This document shows, piece after piece, positions 24,388 to 53,354 of a stretch of DNA of 59,868 nucleotides. The DNA comes from a virus. Taxonomy: Duplodnaviria; Caudoviricetes. Where the stretch lies: positions 1 through 59,868 of the IMG/VR virus record IMGVR_UViG_3300043811_000165, one strand, 5' to 3'. Below the pieces are notes generated by a model. It saw only the letters and a list, made by a program, of their open reading frames with translations, had not been told where the DNA came from and searched no databases. Position numbers and translations under genes: made by a program. Numbering within the stretch: the first letter of the stretch is position 1; every line of letters begins with the position of its first letter.

Positions 24388-24437
24388 CTTCTCCTGGTCG
24401 AACGCTCTAAAATGGATGCGCAGACTCATGCCGACTG

Positions 24438-30316: not shown

Positions 30317-30318
30317 TT

Positions 30319-30458
30319 TTGGCCTCATTCGGCATGTGGGCTTCGATCAGCAGACAGCGCCCGGCCAGGAGATGGGTTTTCTCCCCTCGAAGACGGGCAC
30401 CGTCTCCTGGTCGAACGGTAGAGCGGGCGGGTGAAACGGAAAACTACGATGAGGCCAA
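30319..30458. mobile_element. Empty ~140 bp repeat-pair unit (MITE-like) 1
   Basis: Forward repeat + ~32 bp spacer + reverse repeat. Confidence 0.8.
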
Positions 30459-30920
30459 TGCATCCATCTTGTCAAAATCGAATAGCGTTGGACTCGTTAC
30501 CTTCTGTTCCATCGCTCTGAGGTATCCCACTCCATCCGCCCAATACTCGGAAGAGGTGCGGCCGAAGGGTCAAACTGGCACTTTCCGAACCCCGCTCGTC
30601 CGCGATTACCACCTTGGATGCCAAAAACTCGCTATAGGTCGGTTTTTTGCCCACTTCCCTCGCGTGGGACGAATCGCCGGAGGCTGTCTGGACTTCCGGG
30701 ATGGGGCGCGGCTCCGACTCGTTGTAGGGCGTTTTTGGGCTGTTCATAAAACCTCCCTGCATTTCAACACGGATCGGGATTGAAAACAATGGTACTTCTA
30801 GGCCATTGGTACGGTGTTTACAAATCAGATGTTTTCCGATAGACTCCGTTCCATGGTTTGGCCTCATCGGGCATGTGGCTTCGATGGCAAGCCGGATCGT
30901 TCGACCAGGAGGGGTTTTGG

Positions 30921-31631
30921 ATGGCTTTCGACTTGCAAGTTGTGGTGAACGGCGCGGTGGAAGCGGCGATGAAGGACGGCGGACCCGTTGAGAAGTTGGT
31001 TTCCGAACAGGTGAATAAGGCGATTGCGGAAGCGTTCATGTCGCAGTTCCGAACCTATTCCGATTTCGGAAAGGCGGTCCAGAAGGCAGTTGCCGACGCT
31101 CTCACCTTCGACCCGAATAAATTCGATATCCAGCGGTATCACCTTCTGATTCGGGATGTCGTCAAGAAGCGCGTTGAAGAAAAGATGACGCAGGAGTTCG
31201 CGGTAGAACTGGACAAGTTGCTCGCGGATCTTCATGAGCCCGTTCCCGCTGAACTGAAACTGTCGGAACTGGTCGCGGCGTTCATTGAGCATTTCGAAAA
31301 GGACAGTTACGCGCGCAAACAGGCCGACCGCGTTTCGGTGAAGGTGGGGACGACAGACTACGGATTCACGCACATCTACTTGTACCCAGACGGGAGCCAG
31401 AAGAAACCATACTCCTCTCACTACGACATGGGCCTCCACCTGGACAAAGAGGGCGTCGTCTACTCCGTGGTGATTAACGGCGAATCGATTGATAAGAAGT
31501 TCTTTCTCTCCAGAAAACGAGGCTTCGAGCGGCTGCTGGTCGGCCTCTACATGCAAAAAAGCAGGATCGTGCTGGATTCCTACGATAGTGCCTACAAGGA
31601 AGAGCCGGAGGATGAATGCAGTTGCGCATGA
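30921..31631 (+). CDS. Conserved hypothetical phage protein (cassette cargo)
   Basis: ATG after the AGGAGG of a repeat; 236 aa. Confidence 0.75.
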   Translation: MAFDLQVVVNGAVEAAMKDGGPVEKLVSEQVNKAIAEAFMSQFRTYSDFGKAVQKAVADALTFDPNKFDIQRYHLLIRDVVKKRVEEKMTQEFAVELDKLLADLHEPVPAELKLSELVAAFIEHFEKDSYARKQADRVSVKVGTTDYGFTHIYLYPDGSQKKPYSSHYDMGLHLDKEGVVYSVVINGESIDKKFFLSRKRGFERLLVGLYMQKSRIVLDSYDSAYKEEPEDECSCA

Positions 31632-31851
31632 TGAGGCGCGTCACCATAAAGAGTGAGCAATTCACTAGTTCCGTTGTTCTCGTTCGACCGCCATATCCGA
31701 AGGTCGGCGACGAAGTCACTGGGCATCTATGCGGCGTCCCTGTGAATGGGATAGTGACCGCCGTTAAAAAAGAGACGGGATTTATCATAACCCCTCCTGG
31801 TCGGGCGAACAAACGTCGCGCGAAGTCAGCGAAGCCGATGGAGGCCAAACC

Positions 31852-32502
31852 ATGAAAACCGCTGCGATCTATGCCCGCGTCTCCACATCAGACCAATCCG
31901 CAGAATCCCAACTGAGCTCCCTGCGTGACTACGCATCCCGAAGAGGCTTTTTCGTCTACCGGGAATACACCGACCACGTGACCGGCGTCATTTCCAAACG
32001 AAAAGAGGGGAAGGGAACCGAGTATCAGGCGCTGATGCACGACGCGAAGCAGAAGCGGTTCGATGTAGTGCTGGTCTGGAAGTTCGACCGCTTCGCACGT
32101 TCGCTCAAAGCCCTGATCGAAGGCCTTCAGCTTTTCCAGGAGTTGGGCATCGACTTCGTTTCGGTGACGCAGGACATCGACACGACGGTTTCGATGGGCC
32201 GGTTCTTCTTTCAGATCGTCGGTGCCTTCGCGGAGTTCGAACGGGAGATGATTGTAGAGCGGGTGCGGAGCGGTTTGGATAACGCGCGAAAGAAGGGTGT
32301 GAAGTTGGGAAGGCCGCGCGCACATCCGCCATACGTGGAGCAGGTTGTCCTCGAACGGTTCAAGGCAGGAGATTCTTATCGGGAGATTGGAAAGGCGGTG
32401 GGCATGTCCAGAAACTCAGCGTATGCGATAGTACAAAGGCTCAATGGGTTGGCCTCATCGGGCTTGCCGTCTGCGGCCGGGAGCGGGAGCGTTCGACCAT
32501 GA
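31852..32502 (+). CDS. Small serine recombinase (resolvase/invertase family) with C-terminal HTH
   Basis: YARVSTSDQ, VWKFDRFARS, AFAEFEREMIVERVRSGL..ARKKGVKLGRP, HTH. Confidence 0.95.
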   Translation: MKTAAIYARVSTSDQSAESQLSSLRDYASRRGFFVYREYTDHVTGVISKRKEGKGTEYQALMHDAKQKRFDVVLVWKFDRFARSLKALIEGLQLFQELGIDFVSVTQDIDTTVSMGRFFFQIVGAFAEFEREMIVERVRSGLDNARKKGVKLGRPRAHPPYVEQVVLERFKAGDSYREIGKAVGMSRNSAYAIVQRLNGLASSGLPSAAGSGSVRP

Positions 32503-32849
32503 GGGGTTTTGGTGAGAAGCGCGTCAAAGGTCGCCATAAGATGAAGAATCGCAAACTGAGAAAAAATCCTGCGTTTCTGACGCTCGGCAAACTCCCCGAT
32601 TTAATGCCGGTCGGGTCCGTGATCCCGATTGATATCAACAAGGTTCAGGACGACGGTTTTTCTCGGATGGCCGCTGACCTGATGGTTTCGGCGTCTCTAG
32701 TGAATGCAACCCCGGGCGAGAAAATGCTGATCGCCGCTGTCATTCCGAGCTTCCTCAAAATGATTCGTCCGAAGAAGAAGTCCAACAAGATCTCTAAAAC
32801 CCCTCCTGGTCGAACGGACGGACCAGAAGCGCAGCACACAGCCGAATGA
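32499..32849 (+). CDS. Hypothetical basic cargo protein
   Basis: Between inverted repeats; start uncertain. Confidence 0.5.
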   Translation: MRGFGEKRVKGRHKMKNRKLRKNPAFLTLGKLPDLMPVGSVIPIDINKVQDDGFSRMAADLMVSASLVNATPGEKMLIAAVIPSFLKMIRPKKKSNKISKTPPGRTDGPEAQHTAE

Positions 32850-32875
32850 GGCCAAAGAAAGAAAGGAATTGATTC

Positions 32876-33337
32876 ATGTCCCTAATCACAGTCCCATCCC
32901 CCCTCCCCGTGCCCATGCCCGGTGGAGGCCCACGCAATGGATACCAGTGGCGATTTAACCAGCGCTACTACGCGAAACGCATTCCCGCCCTCCAGCCGTT
33001 TTCCTACGGCCTGGCGGCGGCATTTTTCCCCAACCGAACCGCGCTGACGCAGGAGCAACTCACGGCGCTGGCCGATAAGTTGTATGACTGGGTCGCACCT
33101 GGTGGCCCCGGCGTGTACGGGCCGGAGCACGTCGATTTCGACCAGCAGACGGATTATTGGCAATGGGACCCGTACGGTACAGCGTACGAACGGCTGGTCG
33201 TGTACGGGTATGAGCGGGTTCCCATCGGAACGGGGAACACACTGCAGCCGATTGAAGTGGTGAATCCGGCAGACTTGCAGGGGCCTCCGGTTCCTGGGAA
33301 GTATTTGCTGGTAACGTGTGACATAAATTTGCTTTGA
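32876..33337 (+). CDS. Hypothetical protein
   Basis: RBS AAGGA; ends just before a repeat. Confidence 0.7.
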   Translation: MSLITVPSPLPVPMPGGGPRNGYQWRFNQRYYAKRIPALQPFSYGLAAAFFPNRTALTQEQLTALADKLYDWVAPGGPGVYGPEHVDFDQQTDYWQWDPYGTAYERLVVYGYERVPIGTGNTLQPIEVVNPADLQGPPVPGKYLLVTCDINLL

Positions 33338-33403
33338 TGATTTGGCCTCATCGTAGTTGAGGCTGCGATGGGGCCTTTCGAGCGTTCGACCAGGAGGAGT
33401 TTT

Positions 33404-33901
33404 GTGGAACTCGATAAAGTGGGGACATTGATAAAAGGCACCGAGCATCGGGACGCAATTCACGTTGCAATCGCCCCGGTATTCGCCGGAGAGGTTATAA
33501 ACCCAGGAGAGCATGTGGGCTTTCATGTCGGCGATGCGGCCACCGTATTTCGGGAATCATCTGAGATCGAAGCTATTGGTATTGTTGATCCGTATCTGAG
33601 AAGGGCCGTCGAAATAGGCCAACGATTCTTCATCTTTTTGTATCCTGGCACAGTGACATCTCTCAGGCACCAATGGACCCACCCCGCGTTCAGGGAACCT
33701 GACGAAATTCCTGAGTCGGAACAATACCTGCGGATGTTCGCCGCTAGGAATGATTCCACTTACGAAGATATTTTAGAAGGCCTGTTCCGCGGGGATGATG
33801 AGCGAGAGATTCCGGGAGAGTTCTGGTACCACTTTCGAAAGGTGACCGGAAAGGATGTTCCTGAAAATGAACGACCCTACTTCTTTCGTTGCTACTGCTA
33901 G
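33404..33901 (+). CDS. Conserved hypothetical phage protein (cassette cargo)
   Basis: RDAIHVAIAPV..GIVDPYL..LYPGTVTSLRHQWTHPAF. Confidence 0.75.
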   Translation: MELDKVGTLIKGTEHRDAIHVAIAPVFAGEVINPGEHVGFHVGDAATVFRESSEIEAIGIVDPYLRRAVEIGQRFFIFLYPGTVTSLRHQWTHPAFREPDEIPESEQYLRMFAARNDSTYEDILEGLFRGDDEREIPGEFWYHFRKVTGKDVPENERPYFFRCYC

Positions 33902-33979
33902 GCAGATAACCCCTCTTGGTCGAACGCTCCAACCCACCCGCGCAGACCGATGCCCGATGAGGCCAAGATAAAAAACACA

Positions 33980-35077
33980 ATGCCGTTGGACCCACTCGCC
34001 CTATTGCACAAACAAGGAAAGGAACTGCTCAACGTCCTTTCCTCCGGCCGCGAATCCTCGGATCTTATCCCAGCGAAGGTCCTGGAGCAACACATCGCGA
34101 TTCTAGGAAAAACCGGCAGCGGTAAAAGTTACACGGCCAAAGGCATAGTCGAAACCCTCCTGGCGCAAAAACAGCGAGTGTGCGTAATCGATCCCACGGG
34201 CGTCTGGTGGGGACTTAGATCCGATTCAACCGGGAAGAAACTGGGATTTCCTATTATCGTGCTAGGAGGGGAGGGGGATCTGCTCCTGAACCCGGACCAC
34301 GGCGCCGCGATTGCGGAGATCATCGGAACCACCGACACATCCGCTATTCTCAACACCCGCACAATGACGATCAAACAGCGCACGGGCTTCTTTGCCGATT
34401 TCGCGGAAACGCTGCTGCGAAAGAACACCGGGCCTTTGACGCTGGTGATCGACGAAGCCCACCTGTTCATGCCGCAGACCCGGCCGGGAGACGTCGCCGG
34501 TACACGGATGCTCGACGCGGCGAACAACCTGGTCAGCCTCGGCCGCGGAATCGGGCTCCGGATCATCCTCATCTCCCAGCGGCCGGCGAAAGTGCACAAG
34601 GACAGTTTGACGCAGGCGGAAACACTGATCGTTATGCGCCTGATAGCCCCTCAGGATCGCAGAGCCGTCGAAGATTGGATCGGCGAGTGGGCGCAGCCCC
34701 ATGAGGGCCGGGAATTGCTGCGATCGCTCCAGTCGCTTCCTACGGGCGAAGGATGGCTTTGGGCTCCGGAGCTGGGAATTCTCGATTATGTCGAGTTCCC
34801 GCGCATCAAAACCTACGATTCGAGCCGGGCGCCCGATGGAACGAAGCGGTTGACGGAGCTGCCAGCGTTGCGGAATGCTGTGGACCGGCTGAATGTCCAG
34901 GTGATTGCGGAGCGGTTGAAAAACGTTCCCCCTCCTGGTCGGACGGACAAACGGAGGCGCAAAGACGAAGAGTTGAGGGAGGCCAATGAATCGGCCTCTT
35001 CGGGCTCTGATCCTTCGACCGATCTTCCTACCGTTCGACATGGGCAGGCTTCGGAAGGGCCGAAAAGTGGCTCCTAA
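33980..35077 (+). CDS. HerA/FtsK-superfamily P-loop ATPase; candidate genome-packaging ATPase
   Basis: Walker A GKTGSGKS, VIDPTG, Walker B LVIDEAH, GR.G and SQRPA motifs. Confidence 0.85.
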   Translation: MPLDPLALLHKQGKELLNVLSSGRESSDLIPAKVLEQHIAILGKTGSGKSYTAKGIVETLLAQKQRVCVIDPTGVWWGLRSDSTGKKLGFPIIVLGGEGDLLLNPDHGAAIAEIIGTTDTSAILNTRTMTIKQRTGFFADFAETLLRKNTGPLTLVIDEAHLFMPQTRPGDVAGTRMLDAANNLVSLGRGIGLRIILISQRPAKVHKDSLTQAETLIVMRLIAPQDRRAVEDWIGEWAQPHEGRELLRSLQSLPTGEGWLWAPELGILDYVEFPRIKTYDSSRAPDGTKRLTELPALRNAVDRLNVQVIAERLKNVPPPGRTDKRRRKDEELREANESASSGSDPSTDLPTVRHGQASEGPKSGS

Positions 35078-36356
35078 AGCCTGGTACAACGAAATAGATC
35101 CGAAGAAAGCGGCATGGCTTCGAGAACTGATCAAGCGCGGACTGATCGCGCCAGGAGACGTGGATGAACGATCAATTGCCGATGTTCGGCCCGCCGACCT
35201 TGCCGGATACACCCAATGTCACTTCTTTACCGGAATCGGCATCTGGAGCTACGCGCTCCGTCTCGCCGGGTGGCCCGACGAAAGGGAAGTCTGGACGGGC
35301 TCCTGCCCCTGCCAGCCCTTCAGCGCGGCCGGCAAAGGTGAAGCGTTCGACGACGAAAGGCATCTTTGGCCAGAGTTCTTTCGACTCATCGAGGCACGAC
35401 GACCTGTCGTATGCTTTGGCGAACAGGTTGCGTCGATCGACGGACTCGCTTGGCTCGACCTTGTTCAATCTGACCTGGACCGTGCGGATTACACCTGCGG
35501 GGCGGTCGATCTGTGCGCTGCGGGCGTCGGAGCCCCTCACCGAAGGCAGCGTCTTTATTGGGTGGCCGACACCGCGATCGTCGGGAGGCGGTCCAGATTT
35601 CGCAATCGAGCAGCGGCAGGAGAGCGGGGGATTGAGTCTTCAAACGCCTGTGGCACTGTCGGGTTGGCCCACGAGTCGCGCGGAGGACGCGGAATCGTCG
35701 GGAATGAGGCACAGCCGGGGAGTGGCCGACACGTTGACGGCCGTGGCTGCGTTGACGGGATGGGGAACGCCGGCGGCGCGGGATTGGAAGTCGGGGGACG
35801 CAAGTCAGGAGACGCTGGACAAGAACGCGCGGCCGTTGACCGAACTGGCGAAGCTGGCAGGATGGCCAACCGCAACTGCGACGGACGGGCAGCGGGGCGG
35901 GGAGCAGACGGAGGAGATGAGCGGTTCGTCCCTGACACAGTGGGCGAAGAATGGCGGGATGGGGAACGCCGAAAGCATCGGACGGGGAAGGCGGGCGAGA
36001 TTGAGCGGATGGGTGACTCCGAAGAAAGCCGACGGGGAGCAGGGCAGCGAATCGATGATGCGGGGCAACCTGACGCTGTTGGGCGAGGCCCGGTTAACGG
36101 CTTTTGGCGAGACTCCGATTGGGTACTTACTCGGCCCCAACGGGTGGGAGATCGTCCCGGCTTGCGGCCAGTTGAGCCCGGCTCATTCCCGCTGGCTAAT
36201 GGGTCTTCCGAGCGCGTGGGACGATTGCGGGGTTACGGCGATGGCATCGTTGCGCAGTGCGCGCAAGCGTTCATCGAAGCATACCTGTCCCTCACCGCCA
36301 CAACGGACCATGCACCGGAGCCGGAATGTAGCCCACAAGGTACGACAACAGAATGA
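35067..36356 (+). CDS. C5 cytosine DNA methyltransferase
   Basis: FFTGIG (I), SCPCQPFS (IV), FGEQV (VI), HRRQRLY (VIII), LRGYGDGIV (X). Confidence 0.9.
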   Translation: MAPKAWYNEIDPKKAAWLRELIKRGLIAPGDVDERSIADVRPADLAGYTQCHFFTGIGIWSYALRLAGWPDEREVWTGSCPCQPFSAAGKGEAFDDERHLWPEFFRLIEARRPVVCFGEQVASIDGLAWLDLVQSDLDRADYTCGAVDLCAAGVGAPHRRQRLYWVADTAIVGRRSRFRNRAAAGERGIESSNACGTVGLAHESRGGRGIVGNEAQPGSGRHVDGRGCVDGMGNAGGAGLEVGGRKSGDAGQERAAVDRTGEAGRMANRNCDGRAAGRGADGGDERFVPDTVGEEWRDGERRKHRTGKAGEIERMGDSEESRRGAGQRIDDAGQPDAVGRGPVNGFWRDSDWVLTRPQRVGDRPGLRPVEPGSFPLANGSSERVGRLRGYGDGIVAQCAQAFIEAYLSLTATTDHAPEPECSPQGTTTE

Positions 36357-36501
36357 TCAGGAAAATCACGGCGACGATCACCCGAACGATCTGACCGATG
36401 GGAACGGGCATTGGGATCATGTCGATGATCCACCAGACCACTGTGAAAATCAGGCCGATGATCAGGAGCGTGACGAGCATTCCAATAAGACCTGTGAGCA
36501 T
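36292..36501 (-). CDS. Small two-TM membrane protein (holin-like)
   Basis: 69 aa, two hydrophobic helices. Confidence 0.7.
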   Translation of the reverse strand: MLTGLIGMLVTLLIIGLIFTVVWWIIDMIPMPVPIGQIVRVIVAVIFLIILLSYLVGYIPAPVHGPLWR

Positions 36502-36545
36502 GGAAGCACCTTCAGGTAGTGAGATCCTCGAAACGGCTTTTTGTT

Positions 36546-36686
36546 TCGGCCTCCGTCGGCTTCCTGGCTTCGATCAGCAGACAGCGCCCGACCAGGAGAT
36601 GGTTTTTCTACCCGCGAAGATCAACACCTTTCTCCTGGTCGAACGGGTATAGCGGGCGCAGAAACACCAAAGCCCGATGAGGCTAA
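36546..36686. mobile_element. Empty ~140 bp repeat-pair unit 2
   Basis: Same architecture and related spacer as unit 1. Confidence 0.8.
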
Positions 36687-37813
36687 AGGCAAGGATAAAG
36701 CTTCTTACCCACCATATACACTACAATCTGAACCGGAAGCAGAGCGGGATTTGTTACTTCCGAGTAGAAATCAATTTGCAGTTGCGAATCTTTCCGGTAG
36801 AACAGCGGCGGAACCACTGCCCCGTTTTCATAAGGCGAGCCCGGCCCTCCGTTGTAGAAAATATCCATGATCGGAATGTTGGAGAGGGTGACGAAGTTGT
36901 GATCGTAGACCGATAGCGCGCAGATCGGGGAAGTGATCACTTCGGCGCCGCCGCCAGTTAAAAACTGGGGAGTGAACGTCTGGAAAGCGCTGTTCACGGG
37001 CGCGGTAAAAAGCACAAGCGCGGCGACGGCCGGGATTGCGTTCAGAGCAACTACCAAGTCCCCGGTGAGCCCATCGGATAATCCGCCACTGTTCGTTTGT
37101 AACCCCACCGTGATCGCGTTTCCAACCACCGTAGCTGTGACGGGTTGACTTGGACCAAGCGTGACGAAGGCGACCGATATCAAATTGCCGGTAGGACCCG
37201 CAACTTTCGCAGTCACAACCACTGTGCCAGCTTCGGTCGCAAACGTCGTGCTGGCGGCCGACTGCTTCATGATGATCAACTGGTGCAGTTCAAAGTCGTA
37301 ATTGTTGATCGGCGTGTAGGTTGTGACTGGCGCGGAGGGAGCGGTCTGCGTCAGCGTTGCGGTCGTTTGGTAGGTGAAGGATCTGGGCTGATTCTTGTAA
37401 TTCGGGTTGTGAACATTGCCCGGCAGACGTCGGACACCCTGGAACGCGAGCTGCGCCGTCAGATTCTGGGAGGGAAGCGAAATCCCATACAGATCGAAAC
37501 CGATTTGCCCGGTCTCCGGATACCACTCCTCGGGTGCGATCGCCAGCTCGGGGCTGTTTGGTGCCTGGACCGGGTTTGAACTCTGGTAAACGCCCTGCGA
37601 GGCGCGCATGATCTGGAATTGGCCGGTTCCGTTCGTTGCGAGAAGGCGGTTCAATCCGACTACTCGCCGGACTGCGAAGTCTCCGTAGCCTCCCTGGATG
37701 TATACTTGCTGGTTTTGATAGTTGTTTCCATTGGTGAGAGAGGATGCGTTGAAGGCGTAGGTGTACGGAAGATCGTAGTAGCCTGGCGGGGGTGTGTAGG
37801 GCCGGGTTTTCAT
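36683..37813 (-). CDS. Putative virion protein (tandem beta-barrel) with inserted domain
   Basis: Paralog of 38015..39973; ends VGKKLYP. Confidence 0.7.
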   Translation of the reverse strand: MKTRPYTPPPGYYDLPYTYAFNASSLTNGNNYQNQQVYIQGGYGDFAVRRVVGLNRLLATNGTGQFQIMRASQGVYQSSNPVQAPNSPELAIAPEEWYPETGQIGFDLYGISLPSQNLTAQLAFQGVRRLPGNVHNPNYKNQPRSFTYQTTATLTQTAPSAPVTTYTPINNYDFELHQLIIMKQSAASTTFATEAGTVVVTAKVAGPTGNLISVAFVTLGPSQPVTATVVGNAITVGLQTNSGGLSDGLTGDLVVALNAIPAVAALVLFTAPVNSAFQTFTPQFLTGGGAEVITSPICALSVYDHNFVTLSNIPIMDIFYNGGPGSPYENGAVVPPLFYRKDSQLQIDFYSEVTNPALLPVQIVVYMVGKKLYPCL

Positions 37814-38014
37814 GGTTTGGCCTCGCCCCACTTCCCGGCTCGCTCAATTCGATACTTCTCGACAGCGACCGCTTTTCCGCGCACGCCATCTCTTCCACGC
37901 CAGCAGAGAGCCAGTAGCAGGCACCCAAATAACGGGCGGTTTGTGCTCACAGACCACTCCTGGTCGAACGGAGCCAAGTCCGCGCGAAGCCCGAACTGCG
38001 ATGAGGCCAAACCA

Positions 38015-39973
38015 TTATTCGCACGGATACAACTTCCTGCCTACCAGATACGCAACCACCTGAGCCGGTCCTGCTTCGAACACGTAAACCGGATTCAACC
38101 CGCTTCCATGAATCGGTTCATTGCCGACAAACACCCAACCTCCCGTTGGCGATCCAGACACCGCAATTCCCATCGCCTGTGTTGGGAACGCCGGATCGGG
38201 TATCAGCGTCTGAGACAAAGCCCACGTGTTGCCGGTGAGCGTGTAAACGTAAACCTGGCCGTTGCCTGCGGTCGATCCTGAAAACGGTGCCTGGTAGGCC
38301 CCGATGATCAACGTCGAATCATCGCCCGCGATCGAATTCGGAGCCGCGAAAAACTCAGCTCCCAGTCCGGCGAACGGATGAAGCAGCGTTTGCTGCAACG
38401 TCCAGACCCCGCCCGCGAGTTTATAAACGAGAGCCTCTTCCGGTCCAAACCCGCCCGTTGCGATCGCGCCAATCACGGCCGTCAAGCCGGTCGATGTCAT
38501 GTATCCACCGTAGCCTGAGAAGGTGAATCCGGCCGGTGGTGAAATTTCCTGCTCTTGAACCCACGCGCCAGCGACCAATTGGAAGAAATACGCGCGAGTT
38601 CCGCCCGCGGCGTTGCCAGTAACGATCATCCAGTTCCCGCCCGAATAAATGTTCAGTCCAAATCCGGCGGTCGTGTCCGCAGCGTTGAATTTCTGTTGCA
38701 GCGTCCAGGTACCTGCGACCAGCGTATAGTAGTACACGTTTCCGGGTTGCCCGACGGCTCCACTCGTGGAACGGGTCGCACCGATCAGCAGATTGCCGCT
38801 TGGCGAGATAGCGATAAACGCGCCGAAGAAATCCGTAACCGCGCCATCGGTTCCCTGTATCGTTTGGGCAAGTGAGAAACTTCCAGCCGCGAGATTGTAG
38901 ACGTAAACTGAGCCGCGGGTTGCGGCCGTCGACGGTTCGCCAACGAACAGTTTCGTGCCATCCGGAGAAAATGCAATCGCCGTGCCGTAGGAATCGACTC
39001 CGGACGCGGCAGGCTTGTTCAGGGCCTGTAGGAACGTCCAGACGCCGTTGATGTTCTGGTAAATGTCCACCTGCCCGATTTCTGAGCCCGTATTCGTGCG
39101 ATCATAGGCGGCGGCGTAATTACCCGCAGCGGCGACCGCGACGAACTGGCCGTAATCCGTGCTGGCCGGGCCGGTCGACAGCAGCTCCTGCGTCTGAGTC
39201 AACGCGCCGGTGCCGAAGCCATGGTAGTCGATCTGGATCTGGCTGTCCTTCTTGTAAAACAGCGGTGGAACGATCGCGCCATTCTCGTAAGGTGTTCCCG
39301 GCGCGCCGTTCAGATAAATATCGACGACCGGGATGTTGGAAATTCCCACCGTGAATTGGTCATAAATTGTGATTGCGCAGACGGGCGACTTGATCACGAC
39401 GAACAGACCGGAGGAGTTTTTGGAGAACAGCAGGACCTGGTACAGTTCGAAATCGTAATTGTCGACCTTCGTGTAGCTCGAAACGAAGCCGATGCTTTGG
39501 CTGGGGAGCGTCACGTCCGCGACGTACGTATAGGATTTCGGCTGAAATTTGTATGAGGGCCGGTGGGATGCTCCCGCGCCTTTGAGCCGACGGACCCCTT
39601 GAAACGCAATTTGCGCCGCGATCGGATTCGACGGGAGCAGGACGCCGTACAGATCGAAACCGATTTGCCCGGTCTCCGGATACCACTCCTCGGGTGCGAT
39701 CGCCAGCTCGGGGCTGTTTGCCGATTGCACCGGGTTCGAGGATTGGTAGACGCCTTGCGAGGCGCGCATGACTTGGAATTGGCCGGTGGGATTGGGGTTC
39801 AGGATGCGGTTCAGTCCGACGATGCGGCGCGCGGCGAAGTCTCCGTAACCACCTTGAATGTAGATCTGCTGATTCTGATAATTGTTCCCGTTTGTCAGGT
39901 TTCCTGCGTTGAAGGCGTAGGTGTAGGGTAAGTCGTAGTAGCCTGGCGGGGGTGTGTAGGGCCGGGTTTTCAT
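38015..39973 (-). CDS. Putative virion spike protein with FG-GAP-like beta-propeller insertion
   Basis: Repeats of (F/Y)G..(V/I)A..D..L.(I/V)G...G.VYVY....W...Q.L. Confidence 0.75.
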   Translation of the reverse strand: MKTRPYTPPPGYYDLPYTYAFNAGNLTNGNNYQNQQIYIQGGYGDFAARRIVGLNRILNPNPTGQFQVMRASQGVYQSSNPVQSANSPELAIAPEEWYPETGQIGFDLYGVLLPSNPIAAQIAFQGVRRLKGAGASHRPSYKFQPKSYTYVADVTLPSQSIGFVSSYTKVDNYDFELYQVLLFSKNSSGLFVVIKSPVCAITIYDQFTVGISNIPVVDIYLNGAPGTPYENGAIVPPLFYKKDSQIQIDYHGFGTGALTQTQELLSTGPASTDYGQFVAVAAAGNYAAAYDRTNTGSEIGQVDIYQNINGVWTFLQALNKPAASGVDSYGTAIAFSPDGTKLFVGEPSTAATRGSVYVYNLAAGSFSLAQTIQGTDGAVTDFFGAFIAISPSGNLLIGATRSTSGAVGQPGNVYYYTLVAGTWTLQQKFNAADTTAGFGLNIYSGGNWMIVTGNAAGGTRAYFFQLVAGAWVQEQEISPPAGFTFSGYGGYMTSTGLTAVIGAIATGGFGPEEALVYKLAGGVWTLQQTLLHPFAGLGAEFFAAPNSIAGDDSTLIIGAYQAPFSGSTAGNGQVYVYTLTGNTWALSQTLIPDPAFPTQAMGIAVSGSPTGGWVFVGNEPIHGSGLNPVYVFEAGPAQVVAYLVGRKLYPCE

Positions 39974-40209
39974 GGTTTGGCCTCGTTCTGCCTGAGTGAC
40001 CCCTCGGCTTGAGACTTCTCGACAGCGTCCGCCGATCGCGTTCGCTCAGCAATTCTACCACTGTCTTTCGATGCGAGAATCAATTGGTCCAATCGGCTGT
40101 TCAGGGATAAATGAATCTCCCGGATGCTGGATTTATTATGCAGACCGACAATCACGCCCAAAATTCCCGGGACTGCGGCGATGAGCGCAACCTGAACGGC
40201 ATCAGTCAT
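39970..40209 (-). CDS. Small TM protein (cargo)
   Basis: N-terminal TM; ends EAKP with ATGA overlap. Confidence 0.6.
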   Translation of the reverse strand: MTDAVQVALIAAVPGILGVIVGLHNKSSIREIHLSLNSRLDQLILASKDSGRIAERTRSADAVEKSQAEGSLRQNEAKP

Positions 40210-40451
40210 TTTTGGTGGCCCATCAGTTGAATAATATATCCGAAAAGGATGCCGGCGATTGAACCCATACCCCAAACGATCCATTTGAAGTTTTCAAGGG
40301 CCCTGACCCGGCTTTCGATGTCTTCCGCTTTTTCTTTAGCGTCGTCTTTCATTTCCTGAAGGGACCTGATGATCCCGGCCAACTGCCAGCCATGCCTTAG
40401 CAGTTCGTCGCGATCTTCTTTTTTGAAACAGTTCTCATCGTGTTCATTCAT
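40206..40451 (-). CDS. Coiled-coil + C-terminal TM protein (XhlA/holin-like)
   Basis: IESRVRALENFKWIVWG..TM. Confidence 0.6.
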   Translation of the reverse strand: MNEHDENCFKKEDRDELLRHGWQLAGIIRSLQEMKDDAKEKAEDIESRVRALENFKWIVWGMGSIAGILFGYIIQLMGHQK

Positions 40452-40531
40452 TCTGGGCTCACAAAACATCTCCTGGTCGAACGCTCCAGCATGGAAGCGG
40501 AGCCCCGATTCGACTGAGGCTAAAGAATTGT

Positions 40532-41572
40532 CTAACGTCTCGGATAAAACCATCCAAAAACACCAGCATTTATCGTTCCACCGGCGATCGGCGTGAGAGG
40601 CGGAACATTCGCGAACACTTCAATCGTCTGGCCGCTGATCACCCTGGCGATGTAGCGGCCCGGTACCTGAAATGCAGTTTGCAACGATCCATACGTGTTA
40701 TCCACATCACCGAAGTTTTTGGCATACCGGATGCCGTATTTCAGGCGCCAGACGATCTGGTTCGAGAAATCGGTGTATCCGGCGACTCCCGTCGTCGAAG
40801 CGACGAAGCGGTTAATCACGCCATCGTAGCCGGAAGGTACCTGAATCGACAAAATCAGCACGTCGAGACCGGTAAAAACTCCGCTGTCCTGGAAATCGGT
40901 GATCGGCAGCCCGTTCATGGGTCCGAATTCGTAGCCGTTCGAAGGCATCGCGAGGGGCGGATCGGGATCATAAACCGGCGCGCCAAGTTCTGGAATTCTG
41001 CAACACGATTTCAGTCCGCCGTGCTGCGCAACCCACTGCCACTTTTTCGCCCGACCGATCACTTCGAAGTCGTAGCGATTGGGAATCCACTGAGCCGGAG
41101 CAATCAGAGGATTGGACCGCTGAAGCGGCGGCGGCAATAGCGAGTCCGGCAGAATCGGCTGGGGTGACCAGTCGAGCGGAGGGCCAAGCGCGCCTCCTGG
41201 AACGCTGATGACGCTTCCAGGGGGTGGCAGGGCGAGGGGTTGGGTTCCGCCATTCGACCAGTAACGCCGGCCGTCAGAACCTTCGCGCCATCCGGCGGGA
41301 ACTTTGACCACGCTCCCTGGAGGCGTCATCGAACCCGGTAAAACTGTCGGCTGTGTGCCGGGGCCGGTCCATACCAATTGTCCGTTGGGTGAAATCACCC
41401 AACCTGCATTTGAGGATATTCCCGGCCCGGAAGTGATGGGGATGTTAATTGGGGGTGCTTGTGTTCCAGTCCAGTACCAGTTTCCATCCGGAGCCATGAG
41501 CCAGCCGGATGCTTGGGTGGTTACTGCTCCTGGGGGGATGTTCAGGGGTACTAAATCGCCAAAGCCTCTCAT
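40532..41572 (-). CDS. Putative virion protein with Pro-rich repeats and C-terminal beta-barrel
   Basis: Three GW...P.G...W.G repeats; QVPSGYDGVI..GWFYP. Confidence 0.7.
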   Translation of the reverse strand: MRGFGDLVPLNIPPGAVTTQASGWLMAPDGNWYWTGTQAPPINIPITSGPGISSNAGWVISPNGQLVWTGPGTQPTVLPGSMTPPGSVVKVPAGWREGSDGRRYWSNGGTQPLALPPPGSVISVPGGALGPPLDWSPQPILPDSLLPPPLQRSNPLIAPAQWIPNRYDFEVIGRAKKWQWVAQHGGLKSCCRIPELGAPVYDPDPPLAMPSNGYEFGPMNGLPITDFQDSGVFTGLDVLILSIQVPSGYDGVINRFVASTTGVAGYTDFSNQIVWRLKYGIRYAKNFGDVDNTYGSLQTAFQVPGRYIARVISGQTIEVFANVPPLTPIAGGTINAGVFGWFYPRR

Positions 41573-41892
41573 GATTTGGCCTCGTTCTGCATTCCGGCTT
41601 GTTCAAGTGTCGACTTCTCGACAGCGCCCTGTTTAGAAACACCGTCCAGGTAGGGACAACCCACCGAACCGTAGTGGATTCCGCCACAATTAGCACACCG
41701 TCCGGGCTCCTCTACCTTGGGAATGTACTTCATCGGCTGTTGAGCGCGGACAACAGCGATTCCCGTCATGTCGATTTCGCCCGACGAGTTGAAGCAGTGT
41801 CCGTAATCGGCGTCCCGCAACTTGCGGGCGATCTCATCGTACCCGGCGGCGCTGATTTCCAGGGTGACGTAGGTATGGGTGTGGCGGCTCAT
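41569..41892 (-). CDS. Cargo protein, paralog of 42646..43191
   Basis: Shared N-terminus HTHTYVTLEISA.GYDEIARKLRDADYGHCF. Confidence 0.65.
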   Translation of the reverse strand: MSRHTHTYVTLEISAAGYDEIARKLRDADYGHCFNSSGEIDMTGIAVVRAQQPMKYIPKVEEPGRCANCGGIHYGSVGCPYLDGVSKQGAVEKSTLEQAGMQNEAKS

Positions 41893-42157
41893 GTTTTTGG
41901 CTCCACGCGAATTAGACTACTGGCGACATGGTTCGTTGGGATTCCGCCGTTTCCCCAATCGACCACGACGCGAGTGGGTGTGAGATTCACGACTACGCCA
42001 TTTTGACGATTCCTGAAGTATGGATTTTTTCTGACTGGAAGTTTTACTCTGTCTCCTACTGCGAAGTCGCACTGTCGAGCAGTCACAGTTTCACGCGAAG
42101 AACCCGACTCCGACGAGGACAAAACATCGAGATCGATACCGTCCACAAGTCCGATCA

Positions 42158-42649
42158 TTAAGCCGGCTCCCCTCCCCACAGGATAAGCTGAATTTGCCTG
42201 TCACTGCTCGAAGTGGTCGCAATCTCGACATGCAAAAGACCAGGCGAGGGAACGACCAGCAAGCAGGAAAGCAACTGCTGCTGCGACCAGGTCGGCTCCG
42301 CGATCAGTTCCGCCGTCTCCGGCTGCTTCGTGACAAATTCGGAAATCAGCGGAACATCGGTACAGGTTTCGCGGACCTGAAATGAATCCGTGCCTGACGA
42401 ATCGCCGGTGAACGTGTAGCCCCAGATTGCGGAGCCGGGTTTCATATAGACCTGATATTCGTAGGAGTCGAAGGCAGGGATTTGCTGCGACTGCGTGTCG
42501 TTCGGGACACACCAGGATTTGGAGCGGTAGGCTTTCAATCGTCGGAGAGCGTTGTACTGCTCGATGGCCAGTGCGCTGAATTTCAAATTGCACCGCTGCA
42601 AGGTTTTGAGCACGAAGCCGTCGAGGATGGGGTAGGGTAGTGCGCTCAT
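42158..42649 (-). CDS. Putative small capsid-like protein
   Basis: Beta-rich; in the structural operon; ends IQLILWGGEP. Confidence 0.6.
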   Translation of the reverse strand: MSALPYPILDGFVLKTLQRCNLKFSALAIEQYNALRRLKAYRSKSWCVPNDTQSQQIPAFDSYEYQVYMKPGSAIWGYTFTGDSSGTDSFQVRETCTDVPLISEFVTKQPETAELIAEPTWSQQQLLSCLLVVPSPGLLHVEIATTSSSDRQIQLILWGGEPA

Positions 42650-43191
42650 GATTTGGCCTCGCTCTGCACTTCGGCTTGTTCAGGTGTTGACTTCTCGACA
42701 TTGACCGCTGGAGTGAATGAGTGACTCATATCCGAGCCGTCACCGCGATAATGGGCTCGCTCCGTGTATCCGCACGTCGTATTCCCAATCGGATAAACAC
42801 ACACGGGTTGAGGCGTTACCAGCCGCGCGCGCATTCCTTCAATTGCCAGATTGCAGCCGCGACTGTGGCGCGCGCCGATTGAGCACGGCACACAACAGAA
42901 TTCCGCATAGCCTTCTGCTGACGCGGTGCAGGCAAATCGATCACACTTTGGATTTTTGCACGCGTAAAACTCAATGATCTGCGAACCCGGCTTAACCGGT
43001 TCGGCGTATGCCGGGAAGGTTTGCACCGGCGGCGTGGACTCGCGAGCCCGCGTTACTGCAATTCCCGTCATGTCGATTTCGCCCGAAGAATTGAAGCAGT
43101 GTCCGTAATCGGCATCCCGAAGTTTGCGCGCGATCTCATCGTACCCAATGGCGCTGATTTCCAGAGTGACGTACGTGTGCGTGTGCCTCAA
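42646..43191 (-). CDS. Cys-rich cargo protein
   Basis: Paralog of 41569..41892; ends EAKS. Confidence 0.6.
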   Translation of the reverse strand: MRHTHTYVTLEISAIGYDEIARKLRDADYGHCFNSSGEIDMTGIAVTRARESTPPVQTFPAYAEPVKPGSQIIEFYACKNPKCDRFACTASAEGYAEFCCVPCSIGARHSRGCNLAIEGMRARLVTPQPVCVYPIGNTTCGYTERAHYRGDGSDMSHSFTPAVNVEKSTPEQAEVQSEAKS

Positions 43192-43428
43192 TTGCTACCT
43201 CCAACTGCGACTGTCATCATCGACCCATTCGGGCCGTTAACAGACCGCTCGCAGTTAGGCGGACCCGGCTCGCCTGGACGAAGAAGGTTCCCGTGTGGTC
43301 GTAGACCGAGAATCATCTCAACGCGCTTTAGGCGCTCTTCGATTGTCATCTCGTCCATGGTCACAATCCCCTCCTGGTCGAACGGAACCGCGTCCGCGCG
43401 AAGACCGGACTGCGATGAGGCCAAACCA

Positions 43429-43878
43429 TCATTGCGCCCGGCTCGCAATCTTATAAAGTTTGATCCCTTTGAACACAATTTGCAACGGGTTTGTTGCATC
43501 CGACAGATCCGCAATGTCGATCAGGATCTTGGAGCCTGCGGGAAACAGGTGAGCTGGCGAAATCACAGTGGGATCGTTCGAGGATTGCGACAGGGCGCCG
43601 GAGTTGATAAAGCCGCTTTCGAGCTGGTAACCGGTCGAATCGGCAAGCCGGAACTGGAACGAGCCGGTGAACAGCGAAATATACATGCCGAACAGGTAGA
43701 AATCGGCGTCCGTCTGGATCGACACTGTGTCGCCGTCGATTTCCTGAAGGGCCGTTAGTTGGCCGTTGGGCGGGTTGTAGACATAGTCGAAGGGTTTGGG
43801 CTCAGTTGATGCGTTCGGATCGAGCGCGAGGCCCTGGAAGTAGTCTGGTGCGAATTGGTTTATGGGGTATGTGCTCAT
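43429..43878 (-). CDS. Putative small single-jelly-roll-like capsid protein
   Basis: 149 aa beta-rich protein downstream of the candidate major capsid gene. Confidence 0.6.
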   Translation of the reverse strand: MSTYPINQFAPDYFQGLALDPNASTEPKPFDYVYNPPNGQLTALQEIDGDTVSIQTDADFYLFGMYISLFTGSFQFRLADSTGYQLESGFINSGALSQSSNDPTVISPAHLFPAGSKILIDIADLSDATNPLQIVFKGIKLYKIASRAQ

Positions 43879-43935
43879 GGTTTGGCCTCGTTCTGCTCTC
43901 CGTCTTCGTTCAAATCTTCGTTTCTCGACAGCGGC

Positions 43936-44127
43936 CTATTTCACCTTGCGCACCAGCGCCTTGATCTTTCTGAGCGTTGACGCTGCGCTCGCCTTTCGCC
44001 GCGGGTTCTTCCGTTTGGCAGTCTTGCGCCTGGCCGATGCCCGCCGCGTCGTCCGCCGTTTCGAATTCTTTCTCTTTTTCGGCGCGTATTTTTTCCGCCA
44101 CGCCGGTGAGCCGAATTTCAGAGCCAT
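43936..44127 (-). CDS. Highly basic protamine-like protein (possible DNA-condensing core protein)
   Basis: KKYAPKKRKNSKRRTTRRASARRKTAKRKNPRRK; RBS GGAG. Confidence 0.7.
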   Translation of the reverse strand: MALKFGSPAWRKKYAPKKRKNSKRRTTRRASARRKTAKRKNPRRKASAASTLRKIKALVRKVK

Positions 44128-44299
44128 GTTTTTCTCCCCTTCATTCCAAAACCCCTCCTGGTCGAACGCTGAAGTCCACCATCGAAGCGCGAACGCCCGA
44201 TGAGGCCAAATTATGAGCAAGTCCGGAGCAACCGTCGGAGGGGCAATCACCCCGGACTCGACTCAAATCCCCCTGCCCTATGACAAACAGAAGGAAACC

Positions 44300-44336
44300 G
44301 GTGAAGACGTTCCTCCCAGAACTACCGCCTTCACCA
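44300..44336 (-). terminator. Hairpin downstream of the candidate major capsid gene
   Basis: GGTGAAGGCG...CGTCTTCACC stem followed by a T-rich tract on the minus strand. Confidence 0.4.
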
Positions 44337-44342
44337 ATTCGT

Positions 44343-45041
44343 TTACTGCACGCCGCGAGCGAACAGACCGACCAGTTCTACCAGCAGAATCGCGCCGACA
44401 CCCGAAGAACTGAGCACCTGCGACGTGTTCGAACCGGTCAGATAGGCCATGAAGCTCATTTGATTGGCGATCACCAGTTTCACCGACAGCATGTTCATCG
44501 ACTGACGGCCGGGTAGACCGTTGGTGTAGAACGACTCCGCAGTTTTGGTGGTGTAGCCGGAAATCCCCATCCCCGAAGAGAAGTGGCGGATGTTCGCGCG
44601 CTGGTAGTTCTTGTCTCCCAGCCAGAAGTCGAATGCCCACGAATCGAGCAGCGTTTGCAGATCCGAGCGTAAAATACCCTCGGACCAGTTGAACCGGATC
44701 CCGAACACCGAAAAAGCCTTCGGCGCGTCGAGTTTCCCGTTCTGCGTCATGTTGGTCTGGGCAAGCGTCTTGCCCGAACCGTTTTCGACGTTGGTGAACC
44801 ACGAAGCGTTGCCGCCCTGGTTACCGGTGATCGATCCACTCGCAGTGTAGGTCACCGTGTCGTACAGCGGGGTGTCCTCGACGTCGAGCTGATTCGAAAT
44901 GTAAATCTGACCGCGAAAACTATTGATGATGAACTGCTGTTGGGCAGTGATCGCGGCTTGAGCGTTCGCCTGCATGTTCGCGGCGACGTTCTGAATTGCG
45001 GCTTGCGTGGCCTGTTGGGCCATTGCTGCGGATAACGACAT
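44343..45041 (-). CDS. Candidate major capsid protein (jelly-roll type)
   Basis: 232 aa beta-rich protein with PLYDT..F..TNM..G.L pattern; helical N-terminus; hairpin downstream; has a paralog. Confidence 0.6.
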   Translation of the reverse strand: MSLSAAMAQQATQAAIQNVAANMQANAQAAITAQQQFIINSFRGQIYISNQLDVEDTPLYDTVTYTASGSITGNQGGNASWFTNVENGSGKTLAQTNMTQNGKLDAPKAFSVFGIRFNWSEGILRSDLQTLLDSWAFDFWLGDKNYQRANIRHFSSGMGISGYTTKTAESFYTNGLPGRQSMNMLSVKLVIANQMSFMAYLTGSNTSQVLSSSGVGAILLVELVGLFARGVQ

Positions 45042-45093
45042 TTGGTTTCTTCTGATTTCCTTTCTTTTTATTCGGAGTCAGTTGACCCTAAAA

Positions 45094-45759
45094 CTAAGCT
45101 GCGATGGCGTACGGAGCCGGATATGCGCTCGTGACGCCGCCGCCCATCGGACCTCCGGCACTCAGAACAACGGGGGTCTGAGGAACCGGGAACCTGCCGG
45201 GAACGAAGTCCCGAAGACCAGTGAGACCGATGGTCGAACCGACCGAGGGAATCCACTGATTGATTGCGATCTGGCCCGCCGCCATCAGCCCGCCGAATGC
45301 GACGGCCGCGCCAAATTCTTTATCCACGAAACCGCCTGCGTAGCCAGTTGCGAGTGCGATTGCGACCGAAGACGCGACTGCACCGAAAGCGTTGCCGGTG
45401 AGCGTGGCCGGAAGCGCGGTCATCACGAGATTGTTTACCCCGAGTCCGACCAGTCCTCCTGCGACCAGTTCCACCATCTTCATCGGCTTGACGTTGCCGC
45501 CAAGAAATTGCGGGTTGCGGCGGCGCCGGTGACCGCGGATCGGATTGTGCCGGCGATGCGGATTGCGGGCGTGCATTCGACGGACACCGCTGTGTTTACG
45601 GTTCCGAGCAGACGCATGGCGCGGCCTGCTGGCGCGACGTTTGGTATGTGCCATTGACCTTGTTTCTCCTGTGGGATTTAGAAATCCCAGCGTCAGCATG
45701 TGCGCGTTGCGCTGGGTTCGACGAGGATTTGCCATTCTGGTCACTTTCGTGATCATCAT
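45094..45759 (-). CDS. Basic N-terminus (R..NP repeats) + multi-TM protein; putative internal membrane/core protein
   Basis: RMANP, HARNP, RRHNP, RRRNP followed by three hydrophobic segments. Confidence 0.7.
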   Translation of the reverse strand: MMITKVTRMANPRRTQRNAHMLTLGFLNPTGETRSMAHTKRRASRPRHASARNRKHSGVRRMHARNPHRRHNPIRGHRRRRNPQFLGGNVKPMKMVELVAGGLVGLGVNNLVMTALPATLTGNAFGAVASSVAIALATGYAGGFVDKEFGAAVAFGGLMAAGQIAINQWIPSVGSTIGLTGLRDFVPGRFPVPQTPVVLSAGGPMGGGVTSAYPAPYAIAA

Positions 45760-45917
45760 GGTTTGGTTCCTCGACTGTTGGCCAGAGAGCGGACGGGACT
45801 CGTTAGTCTTTGTACACTCTGCGGATTGCGAACTGGTTTTGACATGTTTTTGACCTCCGCGTCAGCTTCCCGGACGAAACGACTTGTGATCGCCCGACCA
45901 GGAGAGGCTCTCGATCA

Positions 45918-46262
45918 TCACCGGACCATCGAATGGGGACGCTCCAGCACGACGGTGAGCGTGCCGCCCGTTCCTGCACCTGCAACCTTGGTGGCTGTGA
46001 CCGACACCGAATTTGTCAGAGCCCAGGTCAGCACTGGTGCGCCGGCCGTTCCGACGGTGTTTAAATACACCTTGATCGTCGGAAACAGAAAAGTCGTATC
46101 GCTCAACGGAGATTGCCAGTTGTGTGTGACGACTGCGGTGGTGTCGGCGTCAACGAAACCGATCTGCGCTGTGACCATGTTGTCCCCGTTGGGACCGGTT
46201 TGCACCACTGTCGGCGGAACGGTTCCCGTTGCTGGATATGCGTAAGTTACGGTACCTGCCAT
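45918..46262 (-). CDS. Putative small structural protein
   Basis: Thr/Val-rich beta protein; RBS GGAG. Confidence 0.7.
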   Translation of the reverse strand: MAGTVTYAYPATGTVPPTVVQTGPNGDNMVTAQIGFVDADTTAVVTHNWQSPLSDTTFLFPTIKVYLNTVGTAGAPVLTWALTNSVSVTATKVAGAGTGGTLTVVLERPHSMVR

Positions 46263-46264
46263 TG

Positions 46265-47602: not shown

Positions 47603-47853
47603 TTGCTATTCAACCCTCCGACCACTTTCCCCGCCATAAATCCCGTTGCAAACTCGGCAACCGCTCCGATCTTTTCATTCGTGGGCTTTTCCCGCCAAAC
47701 TTCGTACATCACAAACGCAATCGCCGCCGCCGCCTGCACCCACGGATCGGTCATATAAACGGACACGCCGAAACCCAATGCCGCGTGGCCCCATGCGCAG
47801 GAATTCGGCGGGAAGTACGGCACGGATTTCGCGTATTCGAGAAGTTCGTTCAC
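47599..47853 (-). CDS. Small membrane protein
   Basis: Hydrophobic; ATGA overlap. Confidence 0.65.
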   Translation of the reverse strand: MNELLEYAKSVPYFPPNSCAWGHAALGFGVSVYMTDPWVQAAAAIAFVMYEVWREKPTNEKIGAVAEFATGFMAGKVVGGLNSK

Positions 47854-49424: not shown

Positions 49425-49434
49425 AAAATTCCTT

Positions 49435-51791: not shown

Positions 51792-51795
51792 CCCA

Positions 51796-53351: not shown

Positions 53352-53354
53352 TAT

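Follow-up and report, generated by a model that had tools for sequence, protein, structure and literature searches.

MITEs (miniature inverted-repeat transposable elements) and mobile insertion cassettes are the transposase-less ends of insertion sequences (IS), with or without passenger genes, the Correia elements of Neisseria being one example. Promoter-early stem-loop (PeSL) cassettes, reportedly also treated by Comeau et al. in 2014, are known from phages. In T4-type phages these regulatory repeats flank ORFan or accessory genes, and they have been proposed to provide portable homology for modular shuffling that spares the neighbouring genes, with mini-circles formed by recombination between repeats (Arbiol et al. 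2010, PMC2839356, in the part of the paper available to us). MITEs have also been reported in phage genomes (vMITEs), 99 of them in 'phages of Acidobacteriae UBA7540' according to the available portion of PMC11602168. The accessible text of PMC3203893 describes start-associated repeats (SAS and ESAS) in Cluster K mycobacteriophages, which place AGGAG 3-7 bp before the starts of many unrelated genes, are specific to a phage lineage, are absent from the host genome and sometimes have an upstream inverted repeat. Here we analyse the complete virus record IMGVR_UViG_3300043811_000165 (59,868 bp; the window, called WIN in comparisons), which originates from soil metagenomes and contains about 26 pairs of inverted repeats placed at the stop/start junctions of core genes. 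PeSL cassettes, MITEs and mobile insertion cassettes are the closest known kinds, and none of them fits fully. The explanation to which we give about an even chance is a recombination-driven, selection-filtered family of accessory-gene cassettes whose ends are fitted to translational coupling in this soil-phage lineage.

The repeat unit consists of TTTGGCCTC ('A'), a variable filler of 31-36 nt (33 nt in 87 of 160 units) and G(TT/CC)CGACCAGGAG ('B'). The repeat described in an earlier note on this DNA is present, but the true unit is larger, about 55-65 nt. Units alternate in orientation along the genome and so form inverted pairs with A outermost, which hold 0.2-1.4 kb of cargo or none; the DNA they enclose is variable, and the conserved core genes are found outside. 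The order within a cassette is TTTGGCCTC, about 33 nt, GTTCGACCAGGAG, cargo and then the inverted copy, so that the terminal inverted repeats comprise an outer TTTGGCCTC / GAGGCCAAA pair plus an inner 13-nt pair. In the sense of transcription, the upstream unit is of the canonical GTTCGACCAGGAG form, with the GTG or ATG of the cargo 5-8 nt after AGGAG, and the downstream unit is either of the GCCCGACC form or of a degenerate GTCGAGAA...GAACAAGCCG form.

The 207-bp interval from which the analysis started (37811-38017) is one small member of this family, and its minus-strand junction, 38020-37808, reads GAATAATG-G-TTTGGCCTC ... GAGGCCAAA-CC-ATGAAA, just as it had been quoted. Here, all on the minus strand, the TAA stop (38015-38017) of the upstream core gene, a spike-like gene with an FG-GAP repeat (38015-39973), overlaps by one base an ATG at 38015-38013 (TAATG). 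This left ATG opens a frame of 22 codons (37950-38015) across the whole 5' unit, which ends at a TGA (37949-37947) that overlaps the cargo GTG (GTGA). The 5' unit (37957-38011) is made up of TTTGGCCTC at 38011-38003, a 33-nt filler and GTTCGACCAGGAG at 37969-37957, and its AGGAG lies 6 nt ahead of the cargo GTG. The cargo is an open reading frame (ORF) of 46 codons (37810-37950) for a small, hydrophobic, Cys-containing peptide, kept in two relatives of the window, G001 and G002 (60% identity over the longer ORF). It runs through a 3' unit of the degenerate type (37816-37866, with GTCGAGAA at 37863-37856 and GAGGCCAAA at 37824-37816), and its TGA overlaps the next ATG (ATGA). That ATG, at 37813-37811 and two bases past the repeat, begins the downstream core gene, a spike-like paralogue (36683-37813); the GAGG of the 3' unit, 7 nt before it, would be its Shine-Dalgarno (SD) sequence. 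Every base of the interval between the two spike genes lies within an open frame. The 5' ends of the two paralogues are similar, and a stretch from one relative matches both of them. G001 has them in a different order with respect to the small cargo ORF, and a single copy is present in G002. The cassette may have arisen together with a rearrangement of these spike-like genes.

The genes of the window are small, tightly packed and mostly without family matches. A megablast search with 8 kb of it found no close relative among deposited phages, and a search of viral contigs found no relatives of its 652-aa spike-like protein. Five relatives, each a virus record taken whole, were found through the A..B repeat pattern: G001 (63 kb), G002 (58 kb), G005 (41 kb), G003 (22 kb) and G004 (12 kb). 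G001 to G004 have 10-38% of the window DNA in common with it, at about 72-76% identity, and G005, a complete 41-kb phage (L021-L023), only 1%. A metagenome scan for closer relatives added 49 further stretches, including a 63-kb contig identical to G001 and a 116-kb contig 99-100% identical to G002. Many of these stretches are identical or nearly so to G001, G002, G004 or G005, and the rest are about 70-85% identical. Among the 49 stretches and the relatives, no two genomes were 90-99% identical over cassettes apart from L060 against G005, where the 3 kb available are uninformative.

The repeat is abundant throughout this lineage. The window has 80 copies of TTTGGCCTC with at most one mismatch, whereas 100 shuffles gave 16.6 +/- 3.9 (maximum 25), and the exact word has 56, 40, 24, 9 and 8 copies in the five relatives against 0-3 for the reversed word. 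Despite its 1% of shared DNA, G005 contains 24 exact TTTGGCCTC words plus repeat-bounded cassettes. Across 185,579 species genomes the A..B pattern had two matches, each single and on a contig of a metagenome-assembled genome (MAG), and this near-absence indicates that the repeat is a phage sequence rather than part of a host genome. The two contigs (L076, Alcaligenaceae; L077, Gammaproteobacteria) each carry a full A..B unit and have no protein similarity to this phage lineage; their units may come from other phage lineages that use it. Rfam and tRNA searches of the repeat gave no match.

The placement of stop and start codons beside the repeats holds well beyond the first interval. The three other junctions that the earlier note had quoted are present (43431-42649, 8915-9194 and 9689-9977), as is every TGATG it had placed before repeats (at 8152, 13659, 17811, 25250 and 33335). 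The six genomes yielded 101 A>..<A pairs. We oriented 55 according to the outer flank on which ATG is found, leaving out 38 pairs with ATG on neither flank and 8 with ATG on both; at least one oriented pair, 11086-11665, is probably mis-oriented. The expected enrichment of ATG outside upstream repeats was found, with ATG at exactly -4..-2 in 25 of the 55 pairs and at the neighbouring offsets -3..-1, -5..-3 and -6..-4 in 0, 1 and 0, respectively. At an ATG frequency of 0.0138 per position, P(>=25/55) is 7e-32, a value that ignores the relatedness of the copies. The upstream flank reads T(G/A)ATG-N in 18 of 55 pairs, 11 of them as A-T(G/A)A-TG-N (ATGATG or ATAATG), and the upstream stop most often ends 3 nt before A (17/55), with most others 1-13 nt away. 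At the opposite end, the ATG of the next core gene lies at +3..+5 after GAGGCCAAA in 37 pairs, in 30 of these as N-C-ATG. Base preferences in the outer flanks follow suit (T at -3 in 51 of the 55 pairs and A at +3 in 50; G at -2 in 30 and C at +2 in 41; A or T at -4 in 36 and 15; T or A at +4 in 42 and 12), and the T-rich end class TTTTGT mirrors ACAAAA. The left ATG, which mirrors the CAT of the downstream N-C-ATG, may stem from that mirroring, or it may be kept because it opens a frame that would couple translation across the repeat. Over the entire window, junctions of the NTGA type are the most frequent (53 vs 7 of the TGATG type, in a crude ORF scan that includes spurious ORFs), and the lineage has 41-62 NTGA stop-start overlaps per genome by a crude scan; many core and cargo genes start (A/G)TGA.

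Both ends of the cassettes look like ribosome-binding sites, AGGAG facing inward and GAGG outward, a role that we infer because of the spacing from SD to start. Twenty-six ATG-bearing 5' units have a detected cargo start; in 17 of them the ATG is in frame with a TGA on that start (one-third expected, P = 8e-4), and 13 of these 17 leaders are open all the way to it. Among 5' units without ATG, 7 of 20 are in frame and 3 open. Nearly half of the leaders (12/25) are 22-23 codons long, 11 of those ending on NTGA, and the lengths of filler and spacer offset each other such that the frame is kept (33+6, 34+8, 34+5). At the 3' end, a stop overlaps the next ATG in 41 of 55 pairs, and in 37 of 55 the frame that ends there runs open through the unit for 60 nt or more. 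Judged from these sequence features, translation is probably coupled across the cassettes.

Relatives of the window supply the alleles against which insertion can be read. Eleven core-gene junctions are filled by a repeat-bearing insert in one genome and empty in another, a count that covers repeat-bearing inserts only and leaves out those without a repeat; 4 usable cases came from a nucleotide search with 300-nt flanks and the rest from a protein-anchored search. In the clearest case, WIN CAGATGAGC and G003 CCGATGACG (ATGA overlap) stand against CGATGA/TGC-A..A'-TC/ATGAGC in G001. The empty ATGA junction at WIN 54027-54030 (minus strand) is occupied in G001, at the same gene pair, by a cargo-less pair, or 'solo', of 140 bp; with the insert lacking in three genomes and present in one, gain is the simpler reading. 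At WIN 47851-47856 (minus strand) an empty junction in which TGA abuts GTG is matched in G001 by a 496-bp cassette between the same genes.

The empty alleles are of several kinds. A 4-nt NTGA overlap is found in at least one empty allele at 5 of the 11 junctions, TGATG at one (L067 vs WIN 5676-6132), and a 7-nt overlap, ATGYTGA, at one, where the filled allele repeats at least TGACGC. Two have abutting stop and start codons (TGAGTG, TAAATG). One has an 11-nt spacer with its own SD (G002 vs WIN 17817-18231 and G001), and the filled WIN 17813 allele replaces that spacer. The last 'empty' allele is a 20-nt mini-hairpin, GGCCTC-GAAG-GAGGCT (G003 60-85 vs a 141-bp solo at G004 4960-5100), which stands before the same start codon and represents either a palindrome that has collapsed or the element in a primitive form. 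Next to the upstream stop, an ATG or the entire overlap is retained in the filled allele at 10 of 11 junctions, the mini-hairpin case of G004 and G003 being the exception.

These alleles bear out the proposal that deleting an insert together with one ATG or overlap restores the empty junction. They support the stop-start overlap as the target only in part: cassettes do sit there, with the overlap on both sides, but the empty state is mostly NTGA and sometimes non-overlapping, and although empty alleles were found in relatives as had been anticipated, only 1 of 11 has TGATG. The further claim of a fixed ATG (or AT) duplication or crossover did not hold, as duplications of 3, 4 and at least 6 nt were found and the gap between left ATG and repeat ranges from 1 to 8 nt; with both so variable, the junctions do not establish a fixed target duplication or crossover core. 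No 8-bp duplications of the IS1595 type were present at the sites with empty alleles. If an insertion is to spare both members of an overlapping gene pair, the overlap has to be present twice, and selection by itself would thus produce the pattern irrespective of how the ends were joined.

The occurrence of empty, filled and differently filled alleles at the same core junctions indicates that cassettes have been gained and swapped. The junction after gene 43429-43878 has three different cargos in WIN, G001 and G004, and MSRHTHTYV... is a gene that G001 carries at that junction, G002 at the following one and WIN at both. The solo at WIN 56337-56478 matches the place of a cassette 563 bp larger in G001. 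One WIN cargo has a homologue in G002 at a non-syntenic, repeat-flanked place, and two have homologues in the otherwise unrelated G005, one of them inside a cassette there. Most shared cargo is syntenic between relatives, however, so that turnover appears to be slow at this divergence.

Taken together, we favour a model in which the inward end of the 5' unit (CCAGGAG) would act as the ribosome-binding site of the cargo and the outward end of the 3' unit (GAGGCCAAA-NC-ATG) as that of the next core gene. The upstream stop would overlap or abut an ATG from which, in many cases, a frame of 22 codons leads to a (G/A)TGA on the cargo start, and the cargo would be read through the 3' unit to terminate on the ATG of the next gene. 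Cassettes would enter and move mainly by recombination, both through exchange within the conserved units and through rare microhomology joins at the ATG/NTGA common to all junctions. Since selection would keep only inserts that spare both neighbours, overlapping nucleotides would be left on both sides. The 'ATG duplication' would then be a real pattern but a functional footprint, and not a fixed signature left by a transposase or recombinase.

Several observations weigh against this model. Common descent of the units inflates the leader-frame and open-frame statistics, and the openness of 13 of 17 leaders is close to chance for 11 variable codons (about 0.6 by estimate). The relatives are only about 73% identical, which means that all events are old and that junctions may have drifted. 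Clean copies of the 4-nt ATGA on both sides of the insert at G001 22658-22797 and 27209-27704 would fit a true target duplication too, the two ends show family-level mirroring of their outer 6 nt, as is the case for transposon ends, and solos 24 kb apart have even the variable filler in common, which fits copying between sites. A recombination event was never seen directly, and the contigs of two DNA runs, one of them probably the source of the record, gave no usable joints. The joints that these contigs did yield at 30000-49999 were set aside as repeat artefacts; one 'goes back' joint lay inside the palindromic solo 30318-30459, and three were weak, with sides of 21-27 nt, one falling between two 5' units.

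Some of these points would be met by non-autonomous transposable elements, an explanation that we consider unlikely. On this account the solos would be MITEs and the loaded cassettes mobile insertion cassettes, with ends (TG)N-TTTGGCCTC...GAGGCCAAA-N(CA), moved in trans by the transposase of a host or co-infecting element with a duplication of 3-4 bp (ATG, TGA or ATGA), and only insertions at stop/start overlaps would survive. The terminal inverted repeats, the 140-bp consensus common to the solos and the presence of the repeat in the unrelated phage G005 are all as this would predict, the sequence can be parsed in at least one way to give TG...CA ends and a 3-bp duplication of TGA, and the two G001 inserts flanked by ATGA and the mirroring of the outer hexamers fall in line as well. 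That mirroring is not cassette-specific, however: an end matches its own partner at 2.95 positions against 2.85 +/- 0.12 for permuted partners, a value reached by 455 of 2000 permutations. The variable length of the duplicated stretch and of the left ATG-repeat gap, half cassettes without one end, and filled alleles that replace the spacer of the empty one (several, such as WIN 17813 vs G002) are also difficult for a transposon. No transposase is among the 21 Pfam families matched by the 84 window ORFs scanned (those of at least 45 aa, out of 90 crude ORF choices), and two single matches in 185,579 species genomes leave no host reservoir visible.

We regard as rather improbable the idea that the units are purely regulatory intergenic elements, acting in translation initiation or RNA processing and required by all genes of the lineage, with cargo that is ordinary accessory genes, an ATG that is only a re-initiation codon, and no role in mobility. 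The SD-like sequence at both unit ends, at the right distance from starts, would fit such a role, as would the synteny between relatives of most cargo that has homologues, and Cluster K mycobacteriophages have similar start-associated repeats for which the available text of PMC3203893 gives no known mobility. The units are nevertheless found almost exclusively in inverted pairs that flank variable DNA, with many core junctions lacking them; gene-less pairs of 142 bp exist, presence and absence differ at the same junction, and the units recur in a phage with 1% common DNA. Nor do single units fold better than shuffles (mean z about 0). A covarying local hairpin in the filler was considered and dropped, as 153 units (107 GTTCG, 46 GCCCG) gave a mean z of 0 to -0.5 against shuffles that kept mononucleotide composition only, and RNAalifold found no consensus structure in 160 units. 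The solos do fold as long hairpins (z -1.3 to -5.1), as any inverted repeat would. At 30000-49999, promoter-like sites numbered 5 against 8.8 expected under a sigma-70 model that may not be the host's, and terminator-like sites 18 against 22.6 expected; none of either lay on units.

Similarly doubtful is a dedicated 'operon plug-in' system, in which translationally transparent inverted ends (SD at both ends, a relay mini-ORF and 3' read-through) would be targeted by an enzyme to the NTGA/TGATG overlap, possibly by a serine recombinase acting on the start-codon AT. On this view, the four overlapping nucleotides would constitute the attachment site, and every coupled pair of genes could serve as a landing pad.

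The window does encode a small serine recombinase of the resolvase/invertase type with a YARVSTSDQ motif (31852-32502, plus strand), bracketed by cassettes and the only recombinase found among the Pfam families and the 25 listed of 64 PHROG families matched by the 84 ORFs; the PHROG 'integrase' and 'DNA invertase' matches are not necessarily to the same ORF as the Pfam Resolvase match. Homologues are present in G001, G002 and L064, and none was found in the complete G005 by tblastn up to E = 10. No stop occurs in the recombinase ORF ahead of the next cassette, and the frame continues through that cassette's 5' repeat at 32448-32502 (plus strand), such that its last ~18 residues are repeat-encoded, and the G002 alignment extends over this tail. 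Were this enzyme to move or invert the cassettes, excised circles would re-enter at the AT(G) of other junctions, and back-to-back ends would form a palindrome, GAGGCCAAA-NC-AT-GN-TTTGGCCTC, like a core site with a 2-bp AT crossover. Despite the conserved, cassette-flanked gene and the fact that conservation in the outer flanks is highest for AT at -4/-3 and +3/+4, we think this very unlikely, because G005 has 24 repeats plus cassettes and no recombinase homologue, target junctions lack half-sites, the canonical unit is upstream in all 55 oriented cassettes with no inverted state seen, no inversion joint appeared in the contigs (which drop rare variants), and the T-rich ends (TTTTGT / ACAAAA) have no AT at that place.

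The window contains many further members of the family. Measured from outer repeat to outer repeat, plus-strand cassettes lie at 6676-7343, 7605-7998, 8159-8519, 8921-9191, 9695-9974, 11086-11665, 12342-12996, 16195-16655, 17817-18231, 18760-19133, 23596-24445, 25256-26674, 30857-31849, 32448-32856 and 33341-33967, and minus-strand cassettes at 39976-40524, 41575-42123 (with a decayed 5' unit), 42652-43425 and 43881-44210. Six solos, all on the minus strand (30318-30459, 36545-36687, 51653-51792, 53354-53495, 54755-54895 and 56337-56478), are 140-143 bp long and have a common consensus over their entire length. Open frames of 50-53 codons at 51641-51802, 53351-53503 and 56331-56483 (minus strand) each span a gene-less 142-bp unit, and in the solo 51653-51792 the left-ATG frame has 51 codons, with its TGA just past the next start. 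At 14767-15135 (minus strand) there is a half cassette, made up of a cargo ORF and a 3' unit only and joined by a TAATG link to the upstream gene; it is missing in G001 (ATGA junction) and in G002 (GTGA junction). Five of the ten larger cargos match PHROG families, which marks the cargo as genuine phage genes, and none matches Pfam. The cargo 6737-7333 (plus strand) of cassette 6676-7343 matches a deoxyribonucleoside 5'-monophosphate phosphatase (phrog_318, E = 1e-61) and has no counterpart in the relatives, and the cargo 23623-24387 (plus strand) is a 30%-identical paralogue of the conserved virion-block gene 44343-45041 (minus strand).

Overlapping and translationally coupled genes fill phage genomes so densely that nearly any insertion does harm. 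The design of these cassettes would avoid such harm, since they sit at the exact position of the overlap, their ends would re-create the ribosome-binding site of the displaced gene and their frames would keep ribosomes moving. If the coupling relay is real, it would explain how accessory genes have built up even inside virion-gene operons, and a portable design would be at hand for adding genes to operons without causing polar effects. Targeting of the overlap by an enzyme, if it occurs, would be a new kind of site choice. The cassette family also marks a little-known lineage of soil phages.

Several known systems can be compared with the cassettes. The invertible segments of serine invertases (Gin/Hin/Mpi) differ in that the recombinase here is absent from the repeat-bearing G005 and no cassette among the 55 is inverted. 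Integron cassettes are similar as promoterless single genes bounded by imperfect palindromes in gene-palindrome-gene arrays. The core sites of integron attC follow the consensus GTTRRRY / RYYYAAC, however, and GTTTGGC has T where GTTRRRY needs R; moreover, no tyrosine integrase family was matched in the Pfam scan of the 84 ORFs, and the cargo here lies inside the palindrome and not beside it. The SAS of Cluster K mycobacteriophages are likewise AGGAG-containing repeats placed just upstream of start codons, but they share no sequence similarity with the present units, being a different 13-mer, and in the available text of PMC3203893 they are of one orientation, unpaired and not reported to mark insertions, whereas the units here occur in both orientations.

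The likeness to MITEs and mobile insertion cassettes includes inverted repeats at the termini, copies of about 140 bp without genes beside loaded ones, the lack of an internal transposase, sites at gene junctions and variation in presence and absence. The differences are that there is no fixed-length target duplication (with events old enough for drift to be possible), that no matching transposase was found in the window ORFs and virtually no copies in cellular genomes, and that the ends here appear to double as ribosome-binding sites. The family may be the same as the unexplained excess of vMITEs in Acidobacteria phages, to which it is likened by description only, from the available part of PMC11602168. 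PeSL cassettes, as far as the accessible text of PMC2839356 describes them, combine a sigma-70-like promoter with a terminator stem-loop, are in direct orientation and cluster in hyperplastic regions, whereas the units here carry SD sequences, are not enriched for promoter or terminator sites and form inverted pairs. In both systems, insertions, deletions and replacements between related phages map to the repeats; what sets the present cassettes apart is that they lie on translationally coupled junctions, including those of a virion-gene operon, and would be translated through.

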